From Solirubrobacterales bacterium (GTDB lineage Bacteria > Actinomycetota > Thermoleophilia > Solirubrobacterales > 70-9): a stretch of 64,000 bases of DNA. The position numbers and the translations under genes are program-made. The DNA is taken from contig JBBQBH010000010.1 in assembly GCA_038317345.1 (NCBI GenBank), positions 339 to 64,338 of the forward strand, read 5' to 3'. The notes under the pieces were generated by a model. That model had not been told where the DNA came from and made no database searches. It worked only from the letters and a program-made list of their open reading frames with translations. This document shows, in pieces, positions 2,729-57,226 of the stretch (the first letter of the stretch is position 1; each line of letters begins with the position of its first letter).

Positions 2729-2801
2729 TGGAGCCAGCCGGGCTCGAACCGGCGACCTCCCGGATGCAAACCGGACGCTCTTCCAACTGAGCTATGGCCC
2801 C
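2729..2801 (-). tRNA. tRNA-Ala (anticodon UGC)
   Basis: The reverse complement GGGGCCATAGCTCAGTTGGAAGAGCG...CCGGTTTGCATCCGG...GGTTCGAGCCCGGCTGGCTCCA folds as a cloverleaf. It has the G3:U70 Ala identity pair, anticodon loop UUUGCAU and a GGTTCGAGC T-arm. CCA is not encoded. Confidence 0.93.
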
Positions 2802-6863: not shown

Positions 6864-6936
6864 GGGGCTATAGCTCAGTTGGAAGAGCGCCTGGATCGCA
6901 CCCAGGAGGTCGCCGGTTCGAGTCCGGCTAGCTCCA
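6864..6936 (+). tRNA. tRNA-Ala (anticodon CGC)
   Basis: GGGGCTATAGCTCAGTTGGAAGAGCGCCTGGATCGCACCCAGGAGGTCGCCGGTTCGAGTCCGGCTAGCTCCA folds as a cloverleaf with G3:U70 and anticodon loop AUCGCAC. CCA is not encoded. Confidence 0.93.
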
Positions 6937-8202: not shown

Positions 8203-9669
8203 ATGGCGACCGCACAGACGCAAGAGCAGAAGCTTCTGATCGGCGGAGAATGGGTCGCCGCGAGCGCGGGACGCAGCTTCGAGAGGCGCGACCCCTACAC
8301 CGGTGAGGCGGCGACCAGCGCCGCCGCCGCGGGCCGCGAGGACGCACGCGCCGCAGCCGAGGCGGCCGCGGGTGCCTTCGAGGAGTGGTCTTCGACCCCG
8401 CCTGCAAAGCGCCGCGAGCTGCTTCAGAGGGCGTCGAAGCTGCTGCGCGAGCGCGGCGAGGAGATCGCCGCCACGGTCACCGCGGAGACCGGAGGGACCT
8501 TCGGCTGGGGGATGTTCAACGTCGACCTGGCAGCGGGGATGCTCGGTGAAGCGGCCGCCCAGGCCTACGCGGCAACGGGTGAGGTAATCCCCTCCGACGT
8601 TCCGGGCCTGACCGCGATGGGGGTTCGCCAGCCGGCCGGGGTCGTGCTCGGGATCGCGCCCTGGAACGCCCCGGTGATCCTCGGCGCCCGTGCGGTGGCG
8701 TCGCCGCTGGCCTACGGGAACACGGTGGTGCTCAAGGCTTCAGATGTCTGCCCCCGTAGCCACGCCGCCGTCGCGACGGCGCTCGACGATGCCGGGCTAC
8801 CCGCCGGGGTCGTCAACCTGCTCACGCACGAGGCGGATGACGCCGCCGACGTCGTCGACGAGCTGATCGCCCACCCGGCGGTGCGGCGGATCAACTTCAC
8901 GGGCTCGACCCGGGTCGGGAGGCTGATCGCCGAAAACGCGGCGCGGCACCTGAAGCGTGTGCTGCTGGAGCTCGGCGGCAAAGCGCCGTTGGTGGTGCTC
9001 GCGGACGCCGATCTCGACGAGGCCGTCGCGGCGGCGAAGTTCGGGGCCTTCATGCACCAGGGGCAGATCTGCATGTCGACCGAGCGGATCGTCGTCGACG
9101 AGTCAGTCGCGGACCCGTTCACGTCGCGGCTCGGCGAGCGCGCCGCGGCGCTGAAGGTCGGCGACCCGCGCGATCCCGAGACCCAGGTCGGCCCGCTGGT
9201 CAACGAGGCGGCGATGATGCGGGTCACGGAGATGGTCGAGGACGCCGTCTCGAAGGGCGCCGAGGTCGTGACCGGCGGCGAGGCCGACGGTCCCTGCTTC
9301 AAACCCACAGTTCTCAGGGGCGTGACTTCAGACATGCGCGTCTACGAGGAGGAGTCGTTCGGCCCGATCGTCGGGATCATCCCGGTGGACGGCCCCGACG
9401 AGGCGGTGCGGGTCGCAAACGACACCGAGTACGGGCTCGCGGCCGCGGTCTTCGGCTCACACGTTCCGAGCGCCCTCGACGTCGCCCGGCGGATCGAAAG
9501 CGGGATCTGCCATGTCAACGGGGCGACAGTCCACGACGAGCCGCAGATGCCCTTCGGGGGCGTCAAGGCAAGCGGCTGGGGACGGTTCGGCGGCAGGGCG
9601 GCGATCGAGGAGTTCACCGAGCTGCGCTGGATAACGGTCCAGCAGGGCTCGCGGCGCTACCCGATCTGA
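8203..9669 (+). CDS. NAD(P)-dependent aldehyde dehydrogenase
   Basis: ALDH signatures ELGGKAP and FMHQGQICMSTER (catalytic Cys), plus EEESFGP. The start is placed at the ATG at 8203 behind GAAGGA; the tracked ORF begins at 8161. Confidence 0.85.
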   Translation: MATAQTQEQKLLIGGEWVAASAGRSFERRDPYTGEAATSAAAAGREDARAAAEAAAGAFEEWSSTPPAKRRELLQRASKLLRERGEEIAATVTAETGGTFGWGMFNVDLAAGMLGEAAAQAYAATGEVIPSDVPGLTAMGVRQPAGVVLGIAPWNAPVILGARAVASPLAYGNTVVLKASDVCPRSHAAVATALDDAGLPAGVVNLLTHEADDAADVVDELIAHPAVRRINFTGSTRVGRLIAENAARHLKRVLLELGGKAPLVVLADADLDEAVAAAKFGAFMHQGQICMSTERIVVDESVADPFTSRLGERAAALKVGDPRDPETQVGPLVNEAAMMRVTEMVEDAVSKGAEVVTGGEADGPCFKPTVLRGVTSDMRVYEEESFGPIVGIIPVDGPDEAVRVANDTEYGLAAAVFGSHVPSALDVARRIESGICHVNGATVHDEPQMPFGGVKASGWGRFGGRAAIEEFTELRWITVQQGSRRYPI

Positions 9670-21851: not shown

Positions 21852-22973
21852 TTATCGGCGCTCCGACGCCAGTAGCTCTTCGTAGAGGCTCAATGTGTCG
21901 GCGGCGATTCGATCCCAGGAGAACGGGCCCTCGGCCGCACGGCGCGCCGCCGCCGCGAGCTCGGAGCGGGCCGCCTCGTCATCGACGAGCTCGGCCAATG
22001 CCTGAGCGAGCGCCGCTGGGTTCTCGGGCGGGACGATCCGGGCCGCCCCATGCTCGCTGGCCAGCTCCGGGAAGCCGCCGACCGCGGACAGCACCATCGG
22101 CTTGCCGAAGGCGAGCGCCGTGTAGACGACGCCCGAGTGCTCGACGTCGCGGTAGGGCAGCACGACGAGGTCGGCGCGCCGAAAGTAGGCGGGGATCTCG
22201 GGGTCGGTGATGAAGCGGGGCACGAAACGGACCGTGCCGCCCGCCGACTCGGCGAGCCGGCGAAGCGGCTCGACCGGCATCCGGGGGTTGCCGACAATCC
22301 ACAGCTCAGCCCCCTGCACCGACCGAAACGCCTCTAACAGGGTGTCGATCCCCTTGTAGGGGCGCAGCAGCCCGAAGAAGAGGATCACCGGGCCCTCGGC
22401 GTCGCGCAGCTCGGCCGGCAGCGGTTCTTCCTCCGGCAGCCTGGATAGGTAGTCGAAGGCACCGTGGTTGATGACGCGCACGCGGGTCGGCTCGACGCCG
22501 ACCTCCTCCTCGAGCCGGCGCGCGCCGTGGCGCGAGTGCGCCACGACTGCGTCCATGCGACCGAAGACGCGCCGCGCGGTCGCGAGCTGGCTGCGGCTGG
22601 GCTGCGGCGGAAGCACGTAATGCGCGGTCATCACCCGCGGGCGCAGCGGCGGCAACAGCAGCGCGTCCAGACCGGGCACCGTCAGCCACTGGTAGTGGAT
22701 GACGTCGGCATCGGCAGAGCGCCGGAAGCGCAGCATGTCGGGGACGTGCTCGGCGAGCTTGAAGACGCGCCTGGCCGGGGTGTCGAGGCCACGCCCCGCG
22801 GCTCGCCTATAGAAGCGCTCCGAGACCTCATATCCCTGCGGCTGCGGAGTGGGGCCGTAAAGAAAGCGGCTGGTGACCAGCTCGACTTCGGCGCCGGCAC
22901 GAGCGAGGGCGGCGGCCAGCGCGTGGTCGTAGGGCGGCGTGAAGGCCGACGGGTCGACGAGCTGCACTCGCAT
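21852..22973 (-). CDS. Family 4 (GT-B) glycosyltransferase
   Basis: C-terminal GT1/GT4 signature LVVLPYRDVEHSGVVYTALAFGKPMVLSAVGGFPEL. The ATG at 22973 is overlapped by the stop of the 54-codon ORF (TGATG). Confidence 0.85.
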   Translation of the reverse strand: MRVQLVDPSAFTPPYDHALAAALARAGAEVELVTSRFLYGPTPQPQGYEVSERFYRRAAGRGLDTPARRVFKLAEHVPDMLRFRRSADADVIHYQWLTVPGLDALLLPPLRPRVMTAHYVLPPQPSRSQLATARRVFGRMDAVVAHSRHGARRLEEEVGVEPTRVRVINHGAFDYLSRLPEEEPLPAELRDAEGPVILFFGLLRPYKGIDTLLEAFRSVQGAELWIVGNPRMPVEPLRRLAESAGGTVRFVPRFITDPEIPAYFRRADLVVLPYRDVEHSGVVYTALAFGKPMVLSAVGGFPELASEHGAARIVPPENPAALAQALAELVDDEAARSELAAAARRAAEGPFSWDRIAADTLSLYEELLASERR

Positions 22974-23137
22974 CAGATGAGTGATGCCACGGCAACGTGC
23001 GCCTGGGGGCGCGCGTGGCCGAGCAGATCGAGGATGGAGGGCGCGAAGTGTGCTTGTTGCACTCGAGCGCCCGAAGAGGATGAGATGCGAAGCGCCACGC
23101 GCGTAATCCAGGCGTGCGGGGTCGTGGGGTTACTCAT
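22973..23137 (-). CDS. Possible 54-aa ORF coincident with palindromic element copy 1
   Basis: The ATG at 23137 lies 8 nt after a GATAAT hexamer, and the stop TGA overlaps the GT4 ATG. The peptide MSNPTTPHAWITRVALRISSSSGARVQQAHFAPSILDLLGHARPQAHVAVASLI is 37/54 identical to the ORF at 43292-43456. The plus strand has an equally long ORF, so coding is uncertain. Confidence 0.3.
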   Translation of the reverse strand: MSNPTTPHAWITRVALRISSSSGARVQQAHFAPSILDLLGHARPQAHVAVASLI

Positions 23138-23139
23138 CT
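22975..23139. repeat. 165-bp imperfect palindromic element, copy 1 (ERIC/Correia/MITE-like or structured RNA)
   Basis: Gapless ~79% identity by hand alignment to 43294-43458. Termini are AGATGAGT...ACTCATCT, and the internal stems CGCCTGG/CCAGGCG, CGCGTGGC/GCCACGCG, GGGCGC/GCGCCC and GTGC/GCAC fold it into one long hairpin. Confidence 0.75.
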
Positions 23140-23162
23140 AGGGCGATTATCGTGAGCGGGCC

Positions 23163-24101
23163 TTGGAGCCGACTCTTTCCTACTGCGTCGTGAACACGAA
23201 CGGCCGCGAGTTCCTGCTCGCCTGCCTGGAGGCGATCGAGCGCAGCACGCCTGCCGACCTCGAGCGTGAGGTCCTGGTGCTCGACAACGCCTCCGATGAC
23301 GGCTCGGCCGACGCGGTGCGCGGACTTGGTCGCAATATCCGTCTCATCGAGCTGGATCGGCGCACCGGCAAGGCGGCCAACGATTCGACCCTCTTGCGCG
23401 AGGCCCGTGGTCGCTACTGCCTGCTGCTCAACGAGGATTCAGAGTTGCGACCCGGCGCCGTCGAGGCGCTGATTGAGGAACTGGAGGCCGACCCAGCGGC
23501 CGCCGTCGCCGGCGCCCAACTGCTCGACTCCGGCGGACACGAAGTGCCTTGTGCCTGGCGCTTCCCCGGCGTCGGCACGGCGCTTGCCGGGGCCCTGTTC
23601 CTGCACCGCTGGCTGACCGTGCAGAGCAAGGGCAGCGAGACCCGGCGGGTCGACTGGGTGCAGTCCAGCGTCATGCTGGTCCGCCGCGAGGCGGCCGCCG
23701 GGGTCGGCTACCTGGACTCGGACTTCTTCGTCTACTACGACGAGTGTGATCTCTGCAAGCGGCTGGCCGACGCCGGATGGCGGACCCTCTACGTCCCGGG
23801 CGCCCGCGCCGTCCATCACGACCAGCTGGCCACCGACCTCGGCGCCGGGCTGCCTCGCATCGTCGAGTTTCACCGCAATCGCGACCTCTATATGCGCAAG
23901 CACAGCTCCGCGCTGGCGGCCTTCGCCGTGCGGTTGCTGACCGCCTGGGCCTACGCGATACGGGCGCTGGCGGCACTGTTCCTCCCCCGCCACCCGGCGG
24001 GCGTCTATCTGGCGCATGCACGCCAGGCGCTGCGCCCGGCTCGCGGCGAAAGCATGCGTGACCTAGCTAGTGGTCACGCCCACAACGACGGTCATCTCTA
24101 A
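23163..24101 (+). CDS. Family 2 glycosyltransferase
   Basis: GT-A N-terminus SYCVVNTNGREFLLACLEAIE...VLDNASDDGSADAV and a DxD region (YYDECD). This is the only plus-strand gene in the polysaccharide locus. Confidence 0.8.
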   Translation: MEPTLSYCVVNTNGREFLLACLEAIERSTPADLEREVLVLDNASDDGSADAVRGLGRNIRLIELDRRTGKAANDSTLLREARGRYCLLLNEDSELRPGAVEALIEELEADPAAAVAGAQLLDSGGHEVPCAWRFPGVGTALAGALFLHRWLTVQSKGSETRRVDWVQSSVMLVRREAAAGVGYLDSDFFVYYDECDLCKRLADAGWRTLYVPGARAVHHDQLATDLGAGLPRIVEFHRNRDLYMRKHSSALAAFAVRLLTAWAYAIRALAALFLPRHPAGVYLAHARQALRPARGESMRDLASGHAHNDGHL

Positions 24102-25642: not shown

Positions 25643-25648
25643 CAGTCC

Positions 25649-27334
25649 CTACGCGGTGGCCTGGGCGGGCGGTGCCGTTGGCCATTCACCCTGTGAGTCC
25701 GCTTCGCCCTGCTCCATCGCGAGTTGGGGTGCAATGGCAAGCGAGCCTCCGATCGAGAGCAGCACCCAGGTGAGGGGGTCCTCGAGGAAGCCGGCGTAGG
25801 CCATCGTGTGGGCTATTAGCGCCAAGAAGCAGGCGAAGACGGCCGCGCGGGCCGCGACCAGCACGACCCGCTCGGCTGAGGGTCCTGTCGTGGAAGGTGG
25901 CGCCCGAAGCCCCGGCATCAGTCCCATGAACCCACGTGCCAGGGTGGCGAAGGCCACCGCGAGCAGGGCCAGGTAGGCGAGGAGGCCGAGCAGGCCCTGC
26001 TCGGCGGCGACGGTGACCGGCTCGGTGTGCGACACGCTCAGTCGCCCGTTGCCTCCGGTTCGGTGCTTCTGGTAGGCGACCGAAAAGGAGCCAGAGCCAT
26101 ATCCCCACAGCGGCCGATCGCCGAACAGCGCGATCCCTTCGCTGACCAGGTTGGCGCGACCGCTGGTGTCCTTGTTGAGGGTGTGCTCGGTTGAGAGGTT
26201 GATCTTCAGCGAGCCCCCGGCGGCGAGCACGAAGGCGACCGCGAGAATCGCTGCGCCGCCGCAGGCGGCAAGCGTCCAACGAGCGCTCCAGCGCAGCGCG
26301 GCCAATGCGGCAAGCCCGACCAGCAGTGCGACGAAGCTCGATTGCGAGAAGGTCGTGATCAGGCCCAGCCACAGCACCGCGACGAGGGAGCCGAGCCAAA
26401 GCACGAGACGGGGGCTGCGCCCCCAAAGCAGCGCGGCGGCGATCGCGGTGATCGTCAGCGCCAGATAACGCCCGAAGATATTGGGGTCCCAGAACAGGGA
26501 GTTGACCCGGAAGTAGGTGTGAAAGTCATTCGACTGGATCACCTCGGGATTCCAGATCAGGTGGCGCGCCGCGTACTCCCAGAAGCCGAAGAGAACGAAG
26601 AGCAGCGCTTCGCCGGCGACCACACCGAGCCCCAACACCAATAGGCGGCGGTCCCAGCGCCATTCGGCCAGCAGGATGAAGGCGAGCGCGAACGGAACGT
26701 AGAAGAAGGCAACGTTCTGAAGGGCGCGGGAGAAGTCCTCGGAGTAGACGGATTGGAGGGCGTAGAGGACGAGGACGGCGGCGAGGACCTTGGGGAGCAG
26801 CGTGATGCGCCCGGCTGCGGGTCCTGTCACGGAGGTCGCGCTCGCGGCCGTGCTCGAACCCTGCGCGCGGTCCGCGACCGCGACCTCCGCACCACCCGCA
26901 GAAGGCGCGTCATGGTGCTCCCCCCATTGGTGCTCCAGCCACTGCCTCCAGGCCACGGCCAGCACTCCGCCGGCGATCACGAGGTAGAGGGGGACAAGGA
27001 GGTTTGCCTCCTGGCCGCCGGCGTGGATCGGGACGCGGAATGGAACCGCGGCGATCACCGCGAGGGGCAGCAGCATCGGGCGGCGGCGGAACAAGGCAGT
27101 CAAGACGGCAACCGCAATCACCGCCACGGCGCCTAGGGCGACGAAACGGGCGACGTGGTCGCGCAGATCGGTGATCTCGGCCGAGTGCCACTGGTCGGCG
27201 AGGATCAGCACCGGGATCAGCACCAAGGCGATCAGCATCGTCGCCGAACGGCGCGGCGACGCCTCCCAGAGCATCGCGGCAGCGGCTGCGAACACCGCCG
27301 CGAACAAGCCCGCCACCGCTAGGACATTCCCCAT
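25649..27334 (-). CDS. O-antigen ligase / Wzy-like polymerase family membrane protein
   Basis: 561-aa polytopic protein with a large loop (RPLWGYGSGSFSVAY, HTEPVTVAAEQGLLGL) resembling the Wzy_C/O-antigen ligase domain. Confidence 0.65.
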   Translation of the reverse strand: MGNVLAVAGLFAAVFAAAAAMLWEASPRRSATMLIALVLIPVLILADQWHSAEITDLRDHVARFVALGAVAVIAVAVLTALFRRRPMLLPLAVIAAVPFRVPIHAGGQEANLLVPLYLVIAGGVLAVAWRQWLEHQWGEHHDAPSAGGAEVAVADRAQGSSTAASATSVTGPAAGRITLLPKVLAAVLVLYALQSVYSEDFSRALQNVAFFYVPFALAFILLAEWRWDRRLLVLGLGVVAGEALLFVLFGFWEYAARHLIWNPEVIQSNDFHTYFRVNSLFWDPNIFGRYLALTITAIAAALLWGRSPRLVLWLGSLVAVLWLGLITTFSQSSFVALLVGLAALAALRWSARWTLAACGGAAILAVAFVLAAGGSLKINLSTEHTLNKDTSGRANLVSEGIALFGDRPLWGYGSGSFSVAYQKHRTGGNGRLSVSHTEPVTVAAEQGLLGLLAYLALLAVAFATLARGFMGLMPGLRAPPSTTGPSAERVVLVAARAAVFACFLALIAHTMAYAGFLEDPLTWVLLSIGGSLAIAPQLAMEQGEADSQGEWPTAPPAQATA

Positions 27335-35842: not shown

Positions 35843-36811
35843 CTAGAACTCGAACGAGCGCACCCGCTGGTGCCGCTCGACGGCGAGCCCAACGAGGCGG
35901 TCACAGAGGTCGGGGTAGCCGATGCCGCTGGCCTCGAGGAGCTTCGAGTAGACGCTGGTCTCGGTGAAGCCGGGGATCGTGTTGATCTCATTGACCAGCA
36001 CCTCGCCCTCCTCGGTGATGAAGAAGTCGCAGCGTGCCATGCCGCTGCAGCCGGTCAGCGAGAAGACCTGCGCCGCCAGCTCGCGGACCCGCTCGAGGAT
36101 CGGCTCCTCAATCGGCGCCGGCACGACCAGATCCATGCCGCCCTCCGAGTACTTGGCCTCGTAGTCGTACCAGTCGGCATGGGCGACGATCTCACCCGGC
36201 AGCGACGTCTGCGGCTCGTCGTTGCCGAGCACCGAGCACTCCACCTCCCTACCGCTCGCCGGCGCCTCGACGATCACCCGCGGGTCATGGCGGGCGGCAA
36301 GCTCGACCGCCTCGTCGAGCCCACGCTCCCGCGAACTCACCTTGCTGATCCCGACGCTCGAGCCGAGCCGCGAGGGCTTCACCCAGAGCGGCAGCCCAAA
36401 CGAGGCGGCGCGCTCTCGCCAGCCCTCCTCGCCCGCCTCGACGAAATCGACCTGGGGAATGCGGAAGTAGGCGAGCAGGCGCTTGAAGCTGAGCTTGTCC
36501 ATGCAAAGGGCCGAGGCGAGCACGTCGGCTCCCACGTAGGGCAGATCGAGGCACTCGAGCAGTCCCTGCACGGTGCCGTCCTCCCCGAACGGCCCGTGCA
36601 GGACCGGAAACGCTACCTCGCAGTCGAGCAGCCCCGTGCCGGGCGCCAGCCGCACCGCCTCGCCGTCGCAGGACCACCCCCCCTCGCGGTCGATCAGCAC
36701 AGCGACCGCTTTGTGCCCCGCCTGCCCCAGGCCCTCGGCGACCGAGGCGCCGGAGCGCAGCGAGACCTCGTGCTCGCTGGAGCGGCCCCCGGAGAGGACG
36801 GCGACGCGCAT
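35843..36811 (-). CDS. ddl: D-alanine--D-alanine ligase
   Basis: MRVAVLSGGRSSEHEVSLRSG, FPVLHGPFGEDGTVQGLLE and the ATP-grasp block EINTIPGFT. It starts 4 nt after the pknB stop. Confidence 0.92.
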   Translation of the reverse strand: MRVAVLSGGRSSEHEVSLRSGASVAEGLGQAGHKAVAVLIDREGGWSCDGEAVRLAPGTGLLDCEVAFPVLHGPFGEDGTVQGLLECLDLPYVGADVLASALCMDKLSFKRLLAYFRIPQVDFVEAGEEGWRERAASFGLPLWVKPSRLGSSVGISKVSSRERGLDEAVELAARHDPRVIVEAPASGREVECSVLGNDEPQTSLPGEIVAHADWYDYEAKYSEGGMDLVVPAPIEEPILERVRELAAQVFSLTGCSGMARCDFFITEEGEVLVNEINTIPGFTETSVYSKLLEASGIGYPDLCDRLVGLAVERHQRVRSFEF

Positions 36812-36815
36812 CCGC

Positions 36816-38726
36816 TTAGCCGGCCCGTGGAACGGGGGTGGTCGGCGTCGTCGTGGTCGTCGGTGGTGGGGTCGGCGTGGTGAAGTGCCCGACGAAGATC
36901 GTCACCGTGCTGCCCTTCGTCGCCGAGCCGCCCGGCGACGGGAACTGGTCCACCACCTTGCCGTCCTGGGTCGCGACGGTGACCTCCTGCGACTGGACCG
37001 AGGCGGCAAAGCCCTTCGAGCGAAGGGCCGAGACCGCGCTCGACTGCGTCTTGCCGATCACGTTGGGCACCGTCGCCTTCGCCTGGCCGCTGGAGACGAC
37101 GATTGTCACGGTCGAGCCCTGGTCGACCCGCTGGCCGGCGTCGGGCGCCTGCTGGAGCACCTGCCCCGCGGGCGCGTTGTCCTGACGCTTGACCACCGAC
37201 GGGACCAGACCGGCGCCGCGGATCTCGGACTCGGCGACCGCCTGCGTCTCGGCGACCACGAGCGGCACATCGACCTTCTTCGGGCCGCGCGAGACGTTGA
37301 TCGTCACCTCCGAGCCCTGTCGGGCCAGGGATCCTCCGGTGGGGTCGCTGCTGATCACGGTGCCCGCGGGGACGCTGTCCGACGCCGCCTTGACCACCGC
37401 GACCTTGAAGTGCGCGGCCGCCAGCTTGCTCTCCGCGGCGGTCTGGTCGAGGCCGGTCACCGAGGGGACCTTCGCCTGCCCGGGGCCGGCGTTGACGGTC
37501 AGGGTCACGGTCGGCTTGGTGCAAGAGAGCTTCAGAAGGTCGCAGCTCTGGCTTGCCTGCCCCGCCGGCGGGTCCTGCTCGAGGACGATGTCCTTGGCAG
37601 CGAGGCGATGAACGGTGTCTGTCTGAACATCGAACCCCTTCACCTGCAGCACCGTCTTGGCGTCGGAGAGGTTCTGCCCGATCACGTCGGGGACGTCGGC
37701 CTTCGGGGCACTGCGCTGGCTGAGGACCAGGCCGACGACCAAGCCGAGCAGGATCGCCCCCACGACCCATTGCCAGCGGCGTCGCTTCTCCTCGTCCTCG
37801 GCCCCCGGTGGTGTCGGGCCGCCATCCGCAGCCGCCGCCTCGGCTGGCGCCTGCGCCGGTGGCAGCGGCGCGAAGGTCGCGGTGGATCCCGGAGGCGCCG
37901 AAGCCGGATCGCGCTCCGCCGCGTCGAGGGCGGCGGCGAACGCCTCGGCGTCGGCGAACCGCTGCGCCGGGCCCTTGGCGAGCGCCCGCATCACGACCGC
38001 ATCGAGGGCCGGAGAGACCTGCGGGTTGATTGCGCTGGGCCGCTGGGGCGCCTGCGAGACCTGTTTGAGGGCCACGGCGACCGTGCTGTCGCCCTCGAAG
38101 GGGACCTGGCCGGTCAGCGCCTCGTAGAGGATCACGCCGATCGAGTAGAGGTCGGACGACGGCGTCACCTCCAGCCCCTGGGCCTGCTCGGGAGACAGAT
38201 AGTGCGCGGTCCCCATCACCGAGCCGGTTTGGGTGATCTCCGAGACGCCGGCGCGGGCGATGCCGAAGTCGGTGACCGTCGCGTGGCCCTCCGAATCGAC
38301 GATCACGTTCTGGGGCTTGAGGTCACGGTGCACGATGCCGTGACGGTGCGCGAAGCGAGCCGCCTCGAGGATCTGGCGCACGAGCGCGACTGCGGCCGTC
38401 GGGGTGAGGCCGGCGTCGATCAGCTCCTTCAGCGTGCGCCCATCGAGGTACTCCATCGCGATGTAGTAAGTGCCGTTGACGGCGCCGCGATCGAACACGC
38501 CGACCACGTTGGGGTGCTGAAGGCCGGCCGCCGCCTCCGCCTCACGGCGGAAGCGCTCCACAAACTCCTGGTCCTGGGCGAAGCGGTGGTGCAGGACCTT
38601 GAGCGCAACCTTGCGCTGCAGATGGGTGTCCTCGGCGACCCAGACATCGGCCATGCCACCGGAGCCGATCCGCCCGATCACCCGGTAACGGTTGTCGACC
38701 AGTTGGTTCTCGGCGACCTCAGGCAC
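36816..38726 (-). CDS. pknB: Ser/Thr protein kinase PknB with four extracellular PASTA repeats
   Basis: Hanks motifs GSGGMADVWVA, VALK, HRDLKPQN, DFG and SPEQ, then one TM helix. Four VP(D/S/L/N)V-initiated PASTA-like repeats follow. Confidence 0.9.
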   Translation of the reverse strand: MPEVAENQLVDNRYRVIGRIGSGGMADVWVAEDTHLQRKVALKVLHHRFAQDQEFVERFRREAEAAAGLQHPNVVGVFDRGAVNGTYYIAMEYLDGRTLKELIDAGLTPTAAVALVRQILEAARFAHRHGIVHRDLKPQNVIVDSEGHATVTDFGIARAGVSEITQTGSVMGTAHYLSPEQAQGLEVTPSSDLYSIGVILYEALTGQVPFEGDSTVAVALKQVSQAPQRPSAINPQVSPALDAVVMRALAKGPAQRFADAEAFAAALDAAERDPASAPPGSTATFAPLPPAQAPAEAAAADGGPTPPGAEDEEKRRRWQWVVGAILLGLVVGLVLSQRSAPKADVPDVIGQNLSDAKTVLQVKGFDVQTDTVHRLAAKDIVLEQDPPAGQASQSCDLLKLSCTKPTVTLTVNAGPGQAKVPSVTGLDQTAAESKLAAAHFKVAVVKAASDSVPAGTVISSDPTGGSLARQGSEVTINVSRGPKKVDVPLVVAETQAVAESEIRGAGLVPSVVKRQDNAPAGQVLQQAPDAGQRVDQGSTVTIVVSSGQAKATVPNVIGKTQSSAVSALRSKGFAASVQSQEVTVATQDGKVVDQFPSPGGSATKGSTVTIFVGHFTTPTPPPTTTTTPTTPVPRAG

Positions 38727-38728
38727 GC

Positions 38729-40210
38729 CTACTGTCCTTCACTGAGGATCGTCTCCATCACCGCGCGGGTGATCGGGCCGGCGACCTGGGCGCCGAAGCT
38801 CGAGGTGCACTCGATCGTCGCCGCTACCGCGATCTTCGGGTTGTCGGCCGGGGCGAAGCCGATGAACCAGGCCTGGTTCGGAAGCGAGCACCCCGCTCGC
38901 CCGCTGCCCAGCTCGGCGGTTCCAGTCTTCCCGGCGACGCGCAGCGAGGAGGGAAAAACACCGGCCGCGGTGCCGTCATTGACCACGTTCTGCATCATGT
39001 CGTTGAGCTCGGTCGCGGTCTGGGGCTTCATCACCTGCGACTGCACGGTCGGGTTCATGCGCTTAACGGTGCGGCCGTCTGGGTCGACGACGCGGTCCCA
39101 GAGCTGCGGCCTCATCAGCTCGCCGCCGTTGGCAACCGTCGACGCAACCTCCGCCATCTGCAGCGGCGTGACCGAGAGGCGCTCCTGCCCGATTGCGACG
39201 CGGCCGATGTCGATCGCGTCGCCCGGGCCGAGCAGGTGGCCGTTCTCCTTCACGCCGCTGGTCGCCAGCTCGTCGCTGGGCAGGTCGATCTGGGGCGGAG
39301 AGTTGAAGCCGAAGCGGTCCATGTACTGGTACATCGTCGAGGTGCCGACCTTCTCCCCCACCTGCGCGAAAACGGTGTTGACCGAGTTGGTGAGCGCGTC
39401 GGTGAGCGAGATCGAGCCGAACTGCTCGCCGCCCGCGTTGGAGAGCGGAACGCCCTCGATCGGGATCGGCGAGCGGCCGTTGATCACCGAGTCGGGGGTG
39501 AACTTGCCGGTGTCGAGCGCCGCCGTAGCGGTCACGACCTTGAAGGTCGAGCCGGGGGCGTAGCCGCTCTGGGTAGCTCGGTCGAACAGCGGCGAACCGG
39601 CTTCCTTGTTGAGCTGGGCGAAGTGATTGGGGACCTGGTTGGGGTCGTAGGGCGGTTGGCTGACCAGGGCGCGGACCTTTCCGGTCTGCGGCTCGATCGC
39701 CACCACCGCACCCGTCCGCCCCGCGAGCTGCTCCAGTGCGACCCGCTGCGCGGCGGGATCGATCGAGGAGACGATGTTGTCGCCCTGCTGGCGTTGGCCC
39801 TGGAGCTGGTCGAGGATCGAGGTGAACTCGGACTTGTTGCCGACCAGCTCGTCGTTGTGGTAGCGCTCGAACCCGGCCTGGCCGAGGTCGAGGAAGCTGT
39901 AGCCGATCGGATGCCCGAACAGGCTGCCTTCGGGGTAGTGACGCACATAGAAACGGCTGGACCCCCTGCCTTCCCTGGTCGAGCGAGCAATCACCGAGCC
40001 GTCGTCGGCGAAGATCGTTCCGCGGTGGACCTGCAGCTCCTCGAGCAGCGGGCGCCGGTTGGCGCGCTTGTCCTTCAGCGCTTGGGCGTCGAACACGGCC
40101 CAGTAGGAGGTGAAGCCGATCAGCACCGCGAACATCAGCACGATCAGCCCGTACAGCTTTGCGACCTGGGCGTTCACAGCACACCCACTGGTTCGCGCTC
40201 GGCCCCGCAC
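38729..40210 (-). CDS. pbpA: Class B penicillin-binding protein (PbpA-type transpeptidase)
   Basis: SxxK (STFK), SxN (LSNAG) and KTG (KTGTA) motifs. The GTG at 40210 follows AAGGAG by 5 nt. An alternative GTG at 40177 (VNAQVAKLYG...) would give a shorter tail. Confidence 0.88.
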   Translation of the reverse strand: MRGRARTSGCAVNAQVAKLYGLIVLMFAVLIGFTSYWAVFDAQALKDKRANRRPLLEELQVHRGTIFADDGSVIARSTREGRGSSRFYVRHYPEGSLFGHPIGYSFLDLGQAGFERYHNDELVGNKSEFTSILDQLQGQRQQGDNIVSSIDPAAQRVALEQLAGRTGAVVAIEPQTGKVRALVSQPPYDPNQVPNHFAQLNKEAGSPLFDRATQSGYAPGSTFKVVTATAALDTGKFTPDSVINGRSPIPIEGVPLSNAGGEQFGSISLTDALTNSVNTVFAQVGEKVGTSTMYQYMDRFGFNSPPQIDLPSDELATSGVKENGHLLGPGDAIDIGRVAIGQERLSVTPLQMAEVASTVANGGELMRPQLWDRVVDPDGRTVKRMNPTVQSQVMKPQTATELNDMMQNVVNDGTAAGVFPSSLRVAGKTGTAELGSGRAGCSLPNQAWFIGFAPADNPKIAVAATIECTSSFGAQVAGPITRAVMETILSEGQ

Positions 40211-40235
40211 AATGCTCCTTTGCTGAGCCTCGCGC

Positions 40236-41600
40236 TCACGACGGTAGGGACTCGCCGTCGGGAGCGCCGATGAGCTGGCGGCGGGCGCGGTCGGAGATCA
40301 GCAGCAGCAGGGCCAGCAGCACGAAGTTGGCGACGATCGAGCTGCCGCCGTAGCTGACGAACGGCAGGGTGACCCCGGTCAGCGGTATCACCCTCGTCAC
40401 CCCGCCGATGATCACGAATGCCTGGATCGCGAACACGGCGGTCAACCCGGTGGCAAGCAGCTTCGAGAAGCCGTCGCTGGCGATGATCGCGGTCTTGAAG
40501 CCGCGGGCGGCGATCAGCAGATAGATCAGGCAGACCGCCGAGGCGCCGAACAGACCCAGCTCGTCGACGATCAGGGCGTAGATCGTGTCTGTCTGGGCGG
40601 CTGGCAGAAGCGCAACCGGTGGATGGCTGCCGGGAATGAACAGCAGCGATTGCCCGAACCCCTGTCCGAACAGGCCGCCGTCAGCCTGGGCGAAGATCGA
40701 CTGCAACACCTGGTAGCCGGACTGCTGGGGATGCTGGTAAGGGTCGAGCCAGACGTCGACGCGCTCGTGCACGTGAGGCACGGTGTTGGCGAAGAACCAG
40801 GCGCCGACCAGGAACAGCGCCATCCCGATCACCACGAACGAGAAGCGCCCGGTGGCGACGTAGAGCAGCGCCAGAATCGCCGCGAAGAACATCAGCGAGC
40901 TGCCGAGGTCGCGGATGTAGACGAGCATGAACATCGAGGCGCCCCAGATCACCAGCAACGGCCCGAGGTGCTTGAGCGGTGGCAACGTGATCCCCGCGAT
41001 GCGGCGCGCTCCCACGATCAGCACCTCGCGATGCTCGCGCAGGTAACTGGCCAGGAAGATGACGATGCAGATCTTCGAGAACTCTGCAGGCTGGAACGAG
41101 ACCGAGCCGATCTTCACCCCAAGATAGGCGCCGTTGACCTGCTGTCCGATGCCGGGCAGCCGGGGCGCGAGCAGCAGCGCGATTCCGAGGGTGGCGATCA
41201 GGTAGCGGTAGCGCTCCAGCAGCTCGTAGTCGCGCAGGAAGTGGATTGTGAGGGCGAAGAGGAGGAGGCCGAGGACGAACCAGTTGGCCTGGTCGCGGGC
41301 CAGGGTCTCGTCGATTCGGTAGATGACGATCAGCCCGAAGGCGGCGAGCAGCGCCATCAGCGGGAATAGGTAGGGATCCGCATAGGGCAGCCGAGCCCGC
41401 AGATAGAGGTGGCCGGCGACGCAGATGGCCAGGAAGTAGCCGCCGTAGAGGATGCTGAGGTTGCCGAAGCGGGTCCCGCCCTGGATGAACACGGCCGTGA
41501 ATCCGGCGGTGAGCAGCAACGCCACCGGCACCAGCGCGATCAGCTCGCGGTTGCGGGCGCTTCTCATATCAACACTTGTTCGCGCTCGGCCCGTGGCCAA
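40236..41600 (-). CDS. rodA: SEDS-family peptidoglycan polymerase RodA/FtsW
   Basis: Polytopic FtsW/RodA/SpoVE protein with blocks SFQPAEFSKI and GVTLPFVSYGGSS. An alternative ATG at 41567 is possible. Confidence 0.88.
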   Translation of the reverse strand: MATGRARTSVDMRSARNRELIALVPVALLLTAGFTAVFIQGGTRFGNLSILYGGYFLAICVAGHLYLRARLPYADPYLFPLMALLAAFGLIVIYRIDETLARDQANWFVLGLLLFALTIHFLRDYELLERYRYLIATLGIALLLAPRLPGIGQQVNGAYLGVKIGSVSFQPAEFSKICIVIFLASYLREHREVLIVGARRIAGITLPPLKHLGPLLVIWGASMFMLVYIRDLGSSLMFFAAILALLYVATGRFSFVVIGMALFLVGAWFFANTVPHVHERVDVWLDPYQHPQQSGYQVLQSIFAQADGGLFGQGFGQSLLFIPGSHPPVALLPAAQTDTIYALIVDELGLFGASAVCLIYLLIAARGFKTAIIASDGFSKLLATGLTAVFAIQAFVIIGGVTRVIPLTGVTLPFVSYGGSSIVANFVLLALLLLISDRARRQLIGAPDGESLPS

Positions 41601-41622
41601 GCTCTTTTCAAGAGCCTCGCGC

Positions 41623-42795
41623 TCACGGGGATGGCAACGCTCCCTCGCTGCGCTCGAGATCCTCGATCAGCGAGACGGCGTCGCTGCGCGAACGCAGCTC
41701 GTGGCCGGTCACCGAGCCCCGCCGGTCCTTGGGCACCGAGCTGGTCTGGATCGGGCTCGCGTAGCGCTCCTCGTAGAGGCTGATGCCGAACGGCAGGTCG
41801 TAGGGCAGGCCGCGGTAGAGCGCCACACGCCCGGCGTCGTCGGTGCCCAGGAACCAGATCTGGCGGTTGCCGTACCAGGCCCCGAACCCGACCGCGCCCA
41901 GCACCAGCAGCACCGCGAGCACCTTGGCGGCCCGTTTCAGCGCCCGCCTCCCTCGCGGCACCTCGGCCCGCGCTCGAGCCTCGGCGGCCGCGACCCGGCG
42001 CACCTCGTCGCCACGCAGCCCCTCCGCCTCGGCCGCGGGCCCGACCAGAGTCGGGTGCTCGGGCCCGGGGGCCGGCGCGCCGACCTCCTCGAGCTTGAAG
42101 GCGACCGCGGTGATGTTGTCGCGCCCCCCGGCCCGGTTGGCCTCCGCGACGAGGGCACGCACGGCCGCATCGAGGCTGGTCGAGGAGAGAAGGATCTTGG
42201 TGATCTGCTCTTCCCCGATCATCGTTGTGAGGCCGTCGGAGCAGACCAGGTAGACGTCCCCGGGGCGTGCCGGGACCGTGCGGAGGTCGGGCTCGACCTC
42301 TTCGTCGGGGCCGAGCGCCCGGGTGATGATTGAGCGCTGCGGGTGCTCCTCGGCCTGCTGGTCGGTGAGCTGTCCCTTGCGGCGCAGCTCCTCGACCAGC
42401 GAATGGTCCTGGGTCAGCCGCTCCAGCTTCCCGTCGCGCAGCAGATAGGCGCGGCTGTCGCCGACATGTCCGATCGCCACCTCGTCGCGCTCGGGAGCGA
42501 CGATCACCGCGGTGAGCGTCGTTCCCATGCCGGCGTGGCTCTCGTCGCTGGCGGCGTGCTCGTGAATCTCGCGGTTGGCCGACTTGAAGACCTCCCGCAG
42601 GGCGTCCTCGGGACCGGCGGGGAGCTCGCGGTCGAACGCCTCCGCGGCGATCCGCGAAGCAACCTCGCCGGCCTGGGCGCCCCCCATGCCGTCGGCGACC
42701 ACGAACACCGGCGCCCTCACGTAGTAGGAGTCCTCGTTGGCCCGGCGCTGGCGGCCGGTGTCGGTGCGGTATGCCTGGTCGGCGATCCTCAGCAT
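41623..42795 (-). CDS. pstP: PP2C-family Ser/Thr phosphatase PstP with C-terminal TM segment
   Basis: PP2C motifs RRANEDSYYV, VADGMGG and DNITAV, followed by a TM helix and an extracellular tail. Confidence 0.9.
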   Translation of the reverse strand: MLRIADQAYRTDTGRQRRANEDSYYVRAPVFVVADGMGGAQAGEVASRIAAEAFDRELPAGPEDALREVFKSANREIHEHAASDESHAGMGTTLTAVIVAPERDEVAIGHVGDSRAYLLRDGKLERLTQDHSLVEELRRKGQLTDQQAEEHPQRSIITRALGPDEEVEPDLRTVPARPGDVYLVCSDGLTTMIGEEQITKILLSSTSLDAAVRALVAEANRAGGRDNITAVAFKLEEVGAPAPGPEHPTLVGPAAEAEGLRGDEVRRVAAAEARARAEVPRGRRALKRAAKVLAVLLVLGAVGFGAWYGNRQIWFLGTDDAGRVALYRGLPYDLPFGISLYEERYASPIQTSSVPKDRRGSVTGHELRSRSDAVSLIEDLERSEGALPSP

Positions 42796-42806
42796 CGGTT
42801 CAGCCC

Positions 42807-43286
42807 CTAGTCACCCGGTTCGAAGCGGAACTCGGTGTCGCCGATCCTGATCAGATCGCCAGCCACCAGCTCCGCCTCCCCGGCGAGGACCTCGTCGTTG
42901 AGCAGCGTGCCGTTGGTCGACTTGAGGTCCTCGACATAGAAATGGCCACGGTGCGCGTAGATCCTGGCGTGTAGGCCGGAGGCGTAGCGGTCCTCGATCT
43001 GAACGTCCGCCTCGACCGAGCGACCGATCGACAGTCCCCCGAAGAGATCGAAGCGCGAGCCAGCCTTCAGCCCGCCGCCGCGTTCGACCACCAGCCAGCC
43101 CTCCTCGGAGGAGGAGCCGCCATTACCGTCCATAAGCGGCGCTCCGTGCAGTCCCGTGGCATCGGGTGCGGGCGCCGCCGTGCCTCGCAGGTCCTTGAGC
43201 GCGCTGCGCGCGATCCAGAGCAAGAACAGGTAGAGGACGGCGATGAAGCCGAACTTGAGCCCAACCGAGATCGGCTCGTAGTCCAC
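42807..43286 (-). CDS. fhaB: FHA-domain protein FhaB/FipA (membrane-anchored)
   Basis: N-terminal TM helix (GLKFGFIAVLYLFLLWIA) and a C-terminal FHA domain (SIGRS...VQIEDRYASGLHARI...DLKSTNGTLLND). The start is taken as the GTG at 43286 (VDYEPIS). Confidence 0.85.
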   Translation of the reverse strand: MDYEPISVGLKFGFIAVLYLFLLWIARSALKDLRGTAAPAPDATGLHGAPLMDGNGGSSSEEGWLVVERGGGLKAGSRFDLFGGLSIGRSVEADVQIEDRYASGLHARIYAHRGHFYVEDLKSTNGTLLNDEVLAGEAELVAGDLIRIGDTEFRFEPGD

Positions 43287-43291
43287 TGGCC

Positions 43292-43456
43292 CTAGATGGT
43301 CGATGCCACGGCGGCGTGCGCTTGGGGGCGCGCGTCGTCGAGCAGGTCGAGGATCCAGGCCGCGACGTGTGCGACCAGCACACAAGCGGCCGAGGACGAA
43401 GAGATGCGACGCGCGACGCGCGACCTCCAGGCGTGCGGAGTCGTGGCGTCGCCCAT
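43292..43456 (-). CDS. Possible 54-aa ORF coincident with palindromic element copy 2
   Basis: The ATG lies 4 nt after the fhaA stop, and the TAG stop lies 5 nt before the fhaB GTG. Peptide: MGDATTPHAWRSRVARRISSSSAACVLVAHVAAWILDLLDDARPQAHAAVASTI. A plus-strand 54-codon ORF also exists. Confidence 0.3.
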   Translation of the reverse strand: MGDATTPHAWRSRVARRISSSSAACVLVAHVAAWILDLLDDARPQAHAAVASTI

Positions 43457-43458
43457 CT
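43294..43458. repeat. 165-bp imperfect palindromic element, copy 2, filling the fhaA-fhaB junction
   Basis: Same length as, and gapless alignment to, 22975-23139. Termini are AGATGGTCG...CGCCCATCT, flanked by TA on both sides. Stems are CGCTTGG/CCAGGCG, CGCGTCG/CGACGCG, GGCCGC/GCGGCC and GTGTGC/GCACAC. Confidence 0.75.
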
Positions 43459-43460
43459 AA

Positions 43461-44231
43461 CTACTGCTCGATGTCGAAGCTGAACGTGGAAGTGCCGAGG
43501 GTGACTTCGTCGCCGGGACGCAAGCGGGAGGAGGACACCTGACGCCCGTTGATCTTGACGCCGTTGGTGGAGCCGAGATCGGCGATATGCCAGTCGCCTG
43601 TCTCGGCCCGGCGCAGCTCCGCGTGGTGGCGCGAGACGTTGGGGTCCCGGAGCACGCAATCGCTGTCCTTGGAGCGCCCGATCACCGCCTTCGGCCCGTC
43701 GAGCACGTAACGACGATCGCCGATCGAGACGATCGCTCGGGTCGCGACCAGGGCGGCCTCTGGCCGCTTGCTCGGCTTCGCCTTCTCCCGCTCGCGCACC
43801 GCCGAGTAGACCATCGTGTGGCCCTCTTCGCCCTGGCTGGGAGCCTCGCCCTCGTGCGAAGCCGGCTTGACGAGCCGGGTCTGGATGCCGAACTCGCCGA
43901 GCCGTAGCCGCTCGTCGGTCTGAAAGTCGACCGCCGGCCTCGTCAGCAGGTCATAGCTGCGCCGCCGGGCATGCTCGAGGAGGTAGCCGGACAGCTCCTG
44001 TTCGAGCGAGCGCTCATAGCCCTCCAGCTTCGAGCGGTCCTGCTTGGAGAGGTAGACGGTGTACTCGTTCGGCACGTAGATCCGCGAAACCGAGGCGGTC
44101 TTGTGGGCATCCATTTCCTTGGCCAGCTTGCGGGCGAGCTCGACAGGCTGCACCTCGGAGGAAAACGCGCGGCTGAATACGCCCTCGACGAGGCCTTCGA
44201 TCCGTGCTTCGAGGTTGCGCAGGACGCTGAT
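43461..44231 (-). CDS. fhaA: FHA-domain protein FhaA (DUF3662-type N-domain plus C-terminal FHA)
   Basis: N-domain LRNLEARIEGLVEGVFSRAFSSEVQPVELARKLAKEM and a C-terminal FHA domain (VIGRSKDSDCVLRDPNVSRHHAEL...DLGSTNGVKING). The start is inferred at ATC 44231, 7 nt after AAGGAG, because no canonical start lies nearby. Confidence 0.8.
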   Translation of the reverse strand: MSVLRNLEARIEGLVEGVFSRAFSSEVQPVELARKLAKEMDAHKTASVSRIYVPNEYTVYLSKQDRSKLEGYERSLEQELSGYLLEHARRRSYDLLTRPAVDFQTDERLRLGEFGIQTRLVKPASHEGEAPSQGEEGHTMVYSAVREREKAKPSKRPEAALVATRAIVSIGDRRYVLDGPKAVIGRSKDSDCVLRDPNVSRHHAELRRAETGDWHIADLGSTNGVKINGRQVSSSRLRPGDEVTLGTSTFSFDIEQ

Positions 44232-44292
44232 GGCGGGGCTCCTTGGCAGGGGTGGGCGCAGTCCGCGGCGCGAGGACGCCGCGCCCGAAATC

Positions 44293-45984: not shown

Positions 45985-46162
45985 GATCACTGTGCCCACC
46001 ACCGCTTCTTTGCCTTCGGGACGCGCCGCCTCAATCCTTGTCGGAGGGCTCGCATTCCCCATCGGAAAGCCAATAGCGCAACGTTTCCTGCGCACCGGCT
46101 GCCCGGGGCGGCATACTCTCCGCGAGGCGAACCCGACCTGGCGACCCTGGGAGACTCACGCC

Positions 46163-47236: not shown

Positions 47237-47273
47237 GGCCGCTGCAAACTGTCGCATTTCGGCCTCCTCGGTC

Positions 47274-47293
47274 AACCGAACTGCTCGGTTTTC
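47274..47293 (+). terminator. Intrinsic terminator after the CARDB-domain gene
   Basis: AACCGA-ACTGC-TCGGTTTT: a 6-bp stem followed by a T-run. Confidence 0.45.
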
Positions 47294-47326
47294 GCGGCCC
47301 AAGGCGCCTAACTATCCTTCGCCGCC

Positions 47327-53047: not shown

Positions 53048-53131
53048 CAGATCTCCGTCTCTAGTCGCTCGTCTCTAGTCACTCGGGGCTTAGGCCCGAA
53101 CCTCGAGCGACTAGCGACTAACGACGAGTTT

Positions 53132-55645
<2,514 letters not shown>

Positions 55646-57210: not shown

Positions 57211-57226
57211 CCCGCAACCGTCCCCG

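Follow-up and report, generated by a model that had tools for sequence, protein, structure and literature searches.

A 165-bp palindromic repeat occurs twice in the 64,000-nt stretch of Solirubrobacterales DNA analysed here (assembly GCA_038317345.1, contig JBBQBH010000010.1; hereafter the window), at 22975–23139 and 43294–43458. Both copies are likely to be non-autonomous palindromic mobile repeats of the kind represented by miniature inverted-repeat transposable elements (MITEs) and REPINs, and the family to which they belong is found almost only in uncultured Solirubrobacterales/Thermoleophilia. Three properties are unusual and testable: insertion at stop codons with a built-in stop–start module, selection for pairing on the strand opposite the genes, and conservation in place beyond the neutral level. 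Below, 'sense' denotes the orientation of the window minus strand, which is that of the neighbouring genes and of the family, and L numbers denote fetched related loci.

Family size and taxonomic range

The two copies align without gaps over 165 nt at an offset of 20319, and 131/165 positions are identical, in agreement with the roughly 130 identities counted by hand in an earlier reading of the window from sequence alone (hereafter the sequence-only reading). According to an nhmmer profile they are the only full-length copies inside the window, and the same profile shows that the family goes well beyond this pair: 86 full-length copies, as well as partial ones, were found in 1.4 Mb of fetched DNA, and flank matching places the 86 copies at 69 insertion sites. 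The minus-strand peptides match 87 protein clusters, all unnamed, nearly all from JGI metagenomes and most exactly 54 aa long. A back-translated genome scan, run with 47 gap-free sequences on one genome per species in a collection that does not hold the window's own genome, gave 281 stretches confirmed by tblastn. We kept 79 of these loci, from 50 assemblies. With the exception of one 'Chloroflexota' bin, all are uncultured Solirubrobacterales or Thermoleophilia, or bins placed more broadly among actinobacteria, and several assemblies contain more than one copy.

The sequence-only reading knew of no described element matching the repeat, and our searches likewise came back empty. Rfam has no family for it at gathering thresholds across the window and gives no hit at E ≤ 10 on 22900–23220, Pfam and NCBIfam have no family for any of the four peptides, and blastn against plasmid and phage collections finds no match to the repeat. 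The exact 21-nt core motif is present in only three IMG/VR contigs (L082–L084), which are 'viral' by database label. Three proteins (P0005, P0035 and P0086) are a 64-aa peptide variant with the same 10-residue insertion (APKARASAKRE) just ahead of the LDLL motif, which points to a 30-nt insertion subfamily. Most likely, this repeat accounts for dozens of the 54-aa 'hypothetical proteins' annotated in soil metagenomes. Several complete chromosomes of metagenome-assembled genomes from the Microflora Danica (MFD) set contain multiple copies, which makes the questions raised here directly testable. Complete chromosomes with copies include OY969915.1, OY970293.1, OY970203.1, OY969702.1 and OY970260.1.

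Insertion ahead of stop codons

On the sense strand the unit reads 5'-TAG ATG (52 codons) ATC-3' and is placed immediately ahead of a gene's stop codon. Its TAG becomes the stop of the upstream gene, and from its ATG a 54-codon open reading frame (ORF) runs to the displaced original stop, which often overlaps the start codon of the next gene. The consensus with its flanks is cTAGATGGTTGATTCCACGACCCC...CGGCCGTGGAATCAACCATCTAg. It has terminal inverted repeats (AGATGGTTGATTCCACG...CGTGGAATCAACCATCT; columns 1–20 pair with columns 146–165), and the base of the hairpin takes in the upstream stop codon and adjoins the next start codon. In each of its three forward frames the consensus begins with a stop codon. 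The element stays between genes, and its GC content is 65–71%.

This placement recurs across the family. A long upstream ORF ends exactly on the left-junction TAG or TGA in 44/85 copies, a stop codon is present at the right edge in 71/85, and the next long ORF begins ≤20 nt away in 61/85, overlapping in 23 of them as TAATG, TGATG or TAGTG. The downstream gene lies on the sense strand for 77 of the 86 copies, and both neighbours do so for 64. Orientation agrees with that of the element for 87% of the nearest genes vs only 56% of distant genes, so that orientation tracks the adjacent gene and not replication, and replication direction was rejected as its determinant.

The junctions hit are those of housekeeping genes: FhaA|FhaB (copy 2 in the window, as well as L002, L011 and L022), COX2|COX1, gmk|rpoZ|coaBC and alr|CBS-domain gene. 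At COX2|COX1 the element lies between the COX1 Shine–Dalgarno sequence and its ATG and terminates in TGATG. No tandem arrays were seen among the copies in the 1.4 Mb. In the gmk-rpoZ-coaBC operon of one locus (L005:271–2085), full copies occupy both junctions (850–1014 and 1256–1421), and rpoZ is bracketed, cassette-like, by two co-oriented elements.

Filled and empty sites

Fifteen sites have an empty orthologous counterpart, which indicates that the element is or was mobile; eight of the 69 sites are occupied in two or more genomes. For example, L057 reads ggccTA[GATGG...CCATC]TAggc where L060 reads ggccTAgcc, and L038 reads gggtTAGATGG...CCATCTGATGGAC where six genomes read gggcTGATGGA. Four genomes have the element at the COX2/COX1 junction, and two have an empty junction there. 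Two spacers that are empty in the window (57204–57228 and 25645–25730) are filled with a 165-bp copy in L033 and L076, respectively. The inserted segment is 165 nt long and lies directly ahead of the upstream gene's stop codon. Most copies have TA at both ends, and the L057/L060 pair fits a TA duplication. As a general rule, simple TA duplication of the IS630/Tc1 type is weakened by the empty sites with TGA, which it does not fit. Insertion 3' of TCA, CTA or TTA (in the antisense reading) without duplication would be equally consistent with the junction sequences.

Paralogues within a genome are 77%–99% identical. The window pair, at 79%, is among the most diverged, and five copies in assembly VRUE01 are 95–99% identical, which points to recent spread. 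No solo or long-spaced termini were found in the 1.4 Mb. At L073:16447–16527, a site where L038 has a full copy, the central ∼84 nt are missing and only the arms remain, an example of decay in place. Among the candidates put forward in the sequence-only reading, an ERIC/Correia-like MITE is the best supported, given the multiple copies, the filled and empty sites, the terminal inverted repeats and the TA that mostly flanks them.

Fold and strand of pairing

Each copy forms one long hairpin, as had been read from the sequence. Folding energies are −109.7 (copy 1) and −117.9 kcal/mol (copy 2) on the plus strand (z −11.4 and −9.6) and −75.2 and −89.1 kcal/mol on the minus strand (z −6.4 and −4.4), and in all four copy/strand cases 0/200 shuffles fold as well. 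The plus strand contains 7 and 8 G·U pairs vs 0 and 1 A·C pairs (copies 1 and 2), close to the 6–7 G:U pairs, with at most one of the opposite kind, that had been counted by hand. Four pairs are changed on both sides between the two copies yet are still paired, which bears out the paired stem changes noted earlier.

The family extends this pattern. In 72 gap-free members, 34 of the 64 pairs change on both sides (273 cells), a value reached by 0/500 shuffles, while slid partners give 8–15 pairs. The cells that are not Watson–Crick comprise 564 A·C on the sense strand (i.e. G·U on the antisense strand) vs 27 G·U on the sense strand, and 121 others. In ten orthologous pairs we counted 44 switches between Watson–Crick and A·C, five between Watson–Crick and G·U (both on the sense strand) and 16 full double compensations. 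The substitutions in the orthologous pairs are A/G (51) and C/T (41); since the same substitution types yield both classes, the asymmetry lies in which partner they face. Strand-biased mutation was rejected as its source because it does not fit the composition of four-fold sites in neighbouring genes (C 0.52, G 0.38, A 0.043 and T 0.054). The antisense fold is the stabler one in all 50 gap-free copies of the fold-stability set (mean −109 vs −84 kcal/mol). The long hairpin is thus kept by selection, and its pairing is kept on the strand antisense to the genes (window plus).

The most conserved part of the element consists of two direct GCGTCCT motifs in the internal loop, one in each of two central blocks, which together form a direct repeat within the inverted repeat. 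In copy 1, block 1 (23070–23092, minus strand) reads CTTCGCATCTCATCCTCTTCGGG in the sense direction (family consensus GCGCATCTCTGCGTCCTCGGG); it lies in the internal-loop region, has column variability near zero and is kept by the short relatives described below. Block 2 (23019–23040, minus strand) reads CCTCCATCCTCGATCTGCTCGG (family consensus CCCTGCGTCCTTGATCTGCTTGG). Gap-free alignment places the corresponding blocks of copy 2 at 43389–43411 and 43338–43359 (minus strand). Between the blocks lies a variable apical hairpin (23041–23069, minus strand, in copy 1), whose sequence differs among subfamilies while its pairing is kept; columns 76–81 and 87–92 covary.

The sequence-only reading had taken the G:U pairs as favouring a plus-strand RNA. 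The plus strand is indeed the folding strand, both across the family and in place. For an RNA as the active form we found no promoter able to make the full antisense RNA and no conserved sequence outside the hairpin that could serve as one. Antisense RNA is less likely as the active form than a single DNA strand. Passage through G·U/G·T on the antisense strand only is seldom seen outside integron attC sites, and this signature points to either an undiscovered single-strand DNA enzyme in Thermoleophilia or a widespread antisense structure.

Conservation in place

Across 27 orthologous comparisons, the proportion of synonymous differences (pS) is 0.158 in the element vs 0.321 in flanking genes, and that of nonsynonymous differences (pN) is 0.098 vs 0.104. 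At COX2/COX1 the element is 91–96% identical and its flanks 84–88%. Orthologous copies thus evolve more slowly than the synonymous sites of their neighbours, which argues for constraint at the nucleotide level. They also have locus-specific terminal-stem variants in common (e.g. ACCAACC at COX2/COX1, TTAATT in L020 and L049), and therefore descend from single insertions and not from repeated homing or gene conversion. Concerted evolution as the source of the similarity of orthologues is weakened by these variants; the 95–99% identical paralogues show that recent spread also occurs.

Short relatives

A set of shorter elements (∼75–100 nt) keeps the central module only, i.e. TGAC-CGGCGCATnTCGGCGTCCTCGG, a variable apical hairpin and CCCTGCGTCCTTGAnCTGCTTGGTCA. 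They include L028:8451–8529, L027:8687–8765, L007:10275–10349, L017:18080–18153, L017:12953–13007, L015:987–1066, L026:8060–8134 and L049:6096–6171, among others. Their blocks are spaced by 41 nt and not 43, which yields an in-frame TGA; they have no ATG, and the reading frame is not kept. They sit right behind the upstream gene's stop codon and are always sense-oriented; their outer stems, though different at every locus, remain complementary. Where the arms were examined, the final 15–20 nt of the upstream gene, stop codon included, make up the left arm, and the right arm repeats this stretch in inverted form; empty orthologous sites lack the inverted copy (sets C, D and F). The inverted arm could have arisen by template switching at the hairpin or through selection for a stem enclosing the stop codon, both of which are possible. 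These relatives, by virtue of that inverted copy, may reveal the mechanism of the element.

In one spacer, short elements occur in opposite orientations (L007:10275–10349 vs L017:18080–18153 and L014:6674–6761). The flanking genes are convergent in L017 and L014, and each of the three elements adjoins the stop of the gene on its own strand, which implies independent insertions. The window itself contains a degenerate short relative (GCCGCTGCAAACTGTCGCATTTCGGCCTCCTCGG...CTGCTCGGTTTTCGCGGC; ∼47237–47299, plus strand) right after the TAA of the gene at 45935–47236. The short-family profile picks it up weakly in nhmmer (E 0.37). It folds as a hairpin, has the GCTGCAAAC...GGTTTTCGC frame in common with stronger short members, and lacks both the apical hairpin and the second motif. 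In L002 the orthologous spacer is ∼50 nt shorter.

Alternative explanations

Several observations weigh against the reading of the family as mobile repeats: (i) most copies are TA-flanked, yet the empty sites of the L038, L035, L067 and L034 copies carry TGA without TA; (ii) no transposase or recombinase was found, and a tblastn search of the 1.4 Mb with IS200 TnpA and Escherichia coli RAYT (YafM) sequences, a weak test, gave no significant hit, its best and weak match lying in a pyruvate dehydrogenase beta subunit gene; (iii) the most conserved part is internal and not terminal, which is unusual for a MITE and fits better a functional RNA or a folded-DNA site; (iv) conservation of orthologues beyond the neutral level points to a host-level function, which a purely selfish repeat does not predict; (v) the ORF has a mild coding-like signal, with pN/pS of 0.61 for the sense, 0.50 for the antisense and 0.9–1.45 for the other frames; and (vi) the case for transcription and translation of the repeat comes from context only.

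The third and fourth of these points would suit a host-selected, cis-acting element of operon junctions, active as one folded DNA strand or as antisense RNA (window plus) and bound at the GCGTCCT loop by a dedicated protein, in which mobility would be secondary or ancient. We consider this unlikely, though it fares best among the alternatives. Such an element would account for the strand-specific pairing (564 vs 27 cells family-wide and 44 vs 5 in place), for an internal-loop motif that short relatives preserve inside locus-specific complementary stems, and for orthologous copies that are more conserved than their neighbours' synonymous sites; folded attC sites show the same skew of G:T vs C/A (PMC5027507). 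Against it stand the clear filled and empty sites and the 95–99% identical paralogues, which show recent spread. Moreover, the neighbours (FHA, cytochrome oxidase, gmk/rpoZ/coaBC and glycosyltransferase genes) have no common function, no partner protein was identified, and no conserved sequence lies outside the hairpin as an antisense promoter.

The coding-like signal bears on another candidate of the sequence-only reading, namely a real family of 54-aa proteins (with conserved RISSSSG and PCVLDLLGHARPQ) encoded in operons, with the palindrome as a secondary feature. A 54–55-codon ORF from ATG to a stop at the element edge is present in 72/86 copies, and in-frame stops are absent in 50/50 gap-free copies vs ∼7 expected in simulations. 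The pN of the element is similar to that of flanking genes, and codons 33–45 vary almost solely at third positions. As the copies were collected by peptide search, these statistics on the sense ORF carry a bias. The comparison of pN/pS among frames, which had been proposed as a test of purifying selection in one frame, singles out the sense frame over the other frames but not over the antisense frame, whose similar or lower value arises because third positions of both frames coincide. The open antisense ORF was likewise set aside as independent coding evidence, as it is largely a by-product of the palindrome and the open sense ORF. Substitutions between orthologues, by codon position, are 27/23/21 in the arms, without periodicity, and 8/6/21 in the central blocks, chiefly at three hot sites. 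Peptide variants exist that are frame-shifted and re-closed (TTPHAWMTRV vs TIPARLDDAR), and ∼12/86 copies have no ATG or frame, including L075, the orthologue of copy 1. The consensus ORF has a GC content at third codon positions of ∼74% (hand count) vs ∼90% in neighbouring genes, and AlphaFold2 on the sense-peptide alignment predicts a single low-confidence helix (pLDDT 62, pTM 0.22). The short relatives weigh most here: because they keep the same nucleotides out of frame, the 'RISSSSG' and 'VLDLLGHARP' stretches are nucleotide motifs. What stands of the small-protein proposal is that the ORF is usually open and its sense pN/pS low; with the absence of periodicity in the arms, the copies that have lost the ORF and the empty Pfam and NCBIfam searches, we regard it as very unlikely. 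The 54-aa peptide itself is probably not the selected product, and the ORF is plausibly kept open to carry ribosomes across the element.

Least probable of all, by a small step, is a structure acting in the sense mRNA (i.e. an intercistronic stabilizer, processing site or coupling hairpin, as in REP, ERIC or Correia RNA): the repeat always occupies the interior or an end of a transcription unit and keeps one orientation, its hairpin base includes the upstream stop and adjoins the next start, and effects of ERIC and Correia RNAs on the mRNA of neighbouring genes have been reported (PMC2229807), but the excess of A·C over G·U on the sense strand, both in the family and among in-place states, is the opposite of what this predicts, and the sense fold is ∼25 kcal/mol weaker in all 50 copies tested.

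How the repeat might work

As palindromic mobile repeats, the elements would be transcribed together with their host operons, given their placement at stop codons inside these operons. The 54-codon ORF would probably be translated as a pass-through that keeps translational coupling intact, and insertion would be tolerated at housekeeping junctions because coupling is maintained in this way. The repeat may thus represent a way for a mobile element to colonize tightly packed, high-GC operons, in that it supplies a replacement stop and a start and hands ribosomes over to the next gene. The relevant folded form could be a single DNA strand handled by some enzyme, in parallel with IS200/IS605-derived elements, REPINs and integron attC sites.

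A more specific and tentative proposal is a single-strand element, structure-specific and homing to stop codons. It would be active as folded template-strand DNA or as antisense RNA, and an enzyme would recognize the asymmetric internal loop with its two direct GCGTCCT motifs. Its own stop–start–ORF module would make insertion translationally silent, and many copies would since have come under host-level purifying selection at operon junctions.

Comparison with known systems

The closest MITEs in kind are ERIC/IRU (127 bp), YPAL/RU-2 (168 bp, with a 56-codon ORF) and Correia/NEMIS of enterobacteria and neisseriae (Delihas 2008, PMC2229807). Like them, the repeat is shorter than 200 bp and multi-copy, has no transposase of its own (its only ORFs are of 54 codons), is a palindrome over the whole element, has terminal TA, filled and empty sites and a contiguous ORF across the element, and would be co-transcribed with its neighbours. 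Unlike them, it is GC-rich and not AT-rich, its conserved part is internal and not at the termini, it inserts at a stop codon with a built-in TAG-ATG, it pairs on the antisense strand, and it occurs in a different host lineage. No sequence similarity to ERIC, YPAL or Correia was found in Rfam or by blastn against plasmid and phage collections.

With REPINs, which go with RAYT, and with IS200/IS605-derived palindromic elements (Bertels & Rainey 2011, PMC3116915), the repeat shares a long hairpin of two inverted halves with frequent compensatory changes, a predicted ability to fold as single-stranded DNA or mRNA, persistence over long times combined with spread inside genomes, a strand-specific logic and insertion beside a short target without clear duplication. 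It differs in its termini, which read (C)TAGATGG without a conserved tag of the GTAG or CGTC kind, and a RAYT or Y1 transposase was not found close to any of the copies (again the weak tblastn test). Furthermore, REPINs are extragenic and lack stop-codon precision, and in this repeat the conserved core is made of direct copies of a motif within the inverted repeat.

Integron attC sites lie 3' of cassette ORFs, their folded bottom strand is the non-coding one, and they are shorter than the 165 nt of this repeat. Their folded strand is G-enriched and has G:T pairs where the other (top) strand has unpaired C/A (Nivina et al. 2016, PMC5027507). The repeat resembles them in being an imperfect palindrome directly 3' of an ORF in fixed orientation, in the G:T pairs of the folded strand opposite C/A, and in its conserved unpaired features with variable stems and tip (see also Bouvier et al. 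2009, PMC2727003). By contrast, it has no RYYYAAC...GTTRRRY core in the right order: its ends, GGTTGAT (5') and ATCAACC (3'), are reversed and match at 6/7 positions each. Its neighbours are housekeeping operons (e.g. fhaA/fhaB, COX2/COX1 and gmk/rpoZ/coaBC) and not cassette arrays, and the repeat itself carries an ORF. Among the loci with a gene listing, none showed an integrase. The element thus acts like a bacterial MITE or REPIN with an attC-type strand signature, lacks the defining features of REP and attC, and is filed as a palindromic mobile repeat.

MIRUs (mycobacterial interspersed repetitive units) are intergenic repeats of actinobacterial operons, with small ORFs that overlap the stop codon of one flanking gene at their start and the start codon of the other at their stop; they consist of 40–100-bp direct tandem units and not of long palindromes. 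The repeat shares with them its intergenic position in operons and its small ORF overlapping a flanking stop or start, and differs in its long palindrome and lack of tandem arrays. Rickettsia palindromic elements (PMC2229807) are similar in being palindromes with a length that is a multiple of three and open frames, compatible with host translation. Those elements insert in frame within genes and join the protein, whereas this repeat starts with stops and stays between genes.

The two copies in the window and their surroundings

Copy 1 (22975–23139, minus strand; nhmmer score 139, E 1.6e-40; better-pairing strand plus) lies between divergent glycosyltransferase genes at 21852–22973 (minus) and 23163–24101 (plus), and is among the minority of family copies in a divergent intergenic region. 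Its 54-codon sense ORF (MSNPTTPHAW...ASLI; 22973–23137, minus) ends, as the sequence-only reading had stated, on a TGA that shares base 22973 with the ATG of the downstream GT4-like glycosyltransferase gene (373 aa). The plus strand of both copies also contains a 54-codon frame from ATG to stop, which in copy 1 sits within a longer GTG-initiated ORF.

Eight nucleotides upstream of the copy 1 ATG is GATAAT (23146–23151, minus), a −10-like hexamer read from the sequence and a candidate promoter of the GT4 operon. Of the earlier suggestion of a leaderless promoter, the hexamer stands, and the region around it (TCACGATAATCG) is kept at the orthologous locus in L075 and L076; a sigma-70 consensus scan around copy 1 returned no full promoter. 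Because of this conservation, copy 1 probably forms the 5' end of the glycosyltransferase (GT4) operon mRNA. In L076 the orthologous locus of copy 1 (8540–8580) has an unrelated small palindrome (ATGACAGGAAGCTGACAATTTTGTGTCGGAACCTGTCAT) in place of the 165-bp element, and the same spacer has therefore been struck by different hairpins.

Copy 2 (43294–43458, minus strand) lies between an FhaA-like gene (stop at 43461–43463) and an FhaB-like gene with a forkhead-associated (FHA) domain (GTG near 43286). Its 54-codon sense ORF (MGDATTPHAW...ASTI; 43292–43456, minus) fits between that stop and that GTG: its ATG is 4 nt past the FhaA-like TAG, and its own TAG is 5 nt ahead of the FhaB-like GTG. The two FHA genes on either side of copy 2 belong to a conserved actinobacterial cluster (35843–46095, minus) in which window translations identify FHA proteins, a PP2C phosphatase and a Ser/Thr kinase; past the phosphatase, synteny with L002 indicates RodA/FtsW, a penicillin-binding protein, a PASTA kinase and D-Ala-D-Ala ligase.

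Elsewhere in the window, a different, CTAG-rich palindrome (…GTTAGTCGCTAGTCGCTCGAGG…CCCCGAGTGACTAGAGACGAGCGACTAGAGACGG) occupies 53049–53148 (minus) with z of about −2.5 to −3, and L033 has a short family member in that spacer. Two tRNA genes, at 2729–2801 (minus) and 6864–6936 (plus), are the only Rfam matches in the window.

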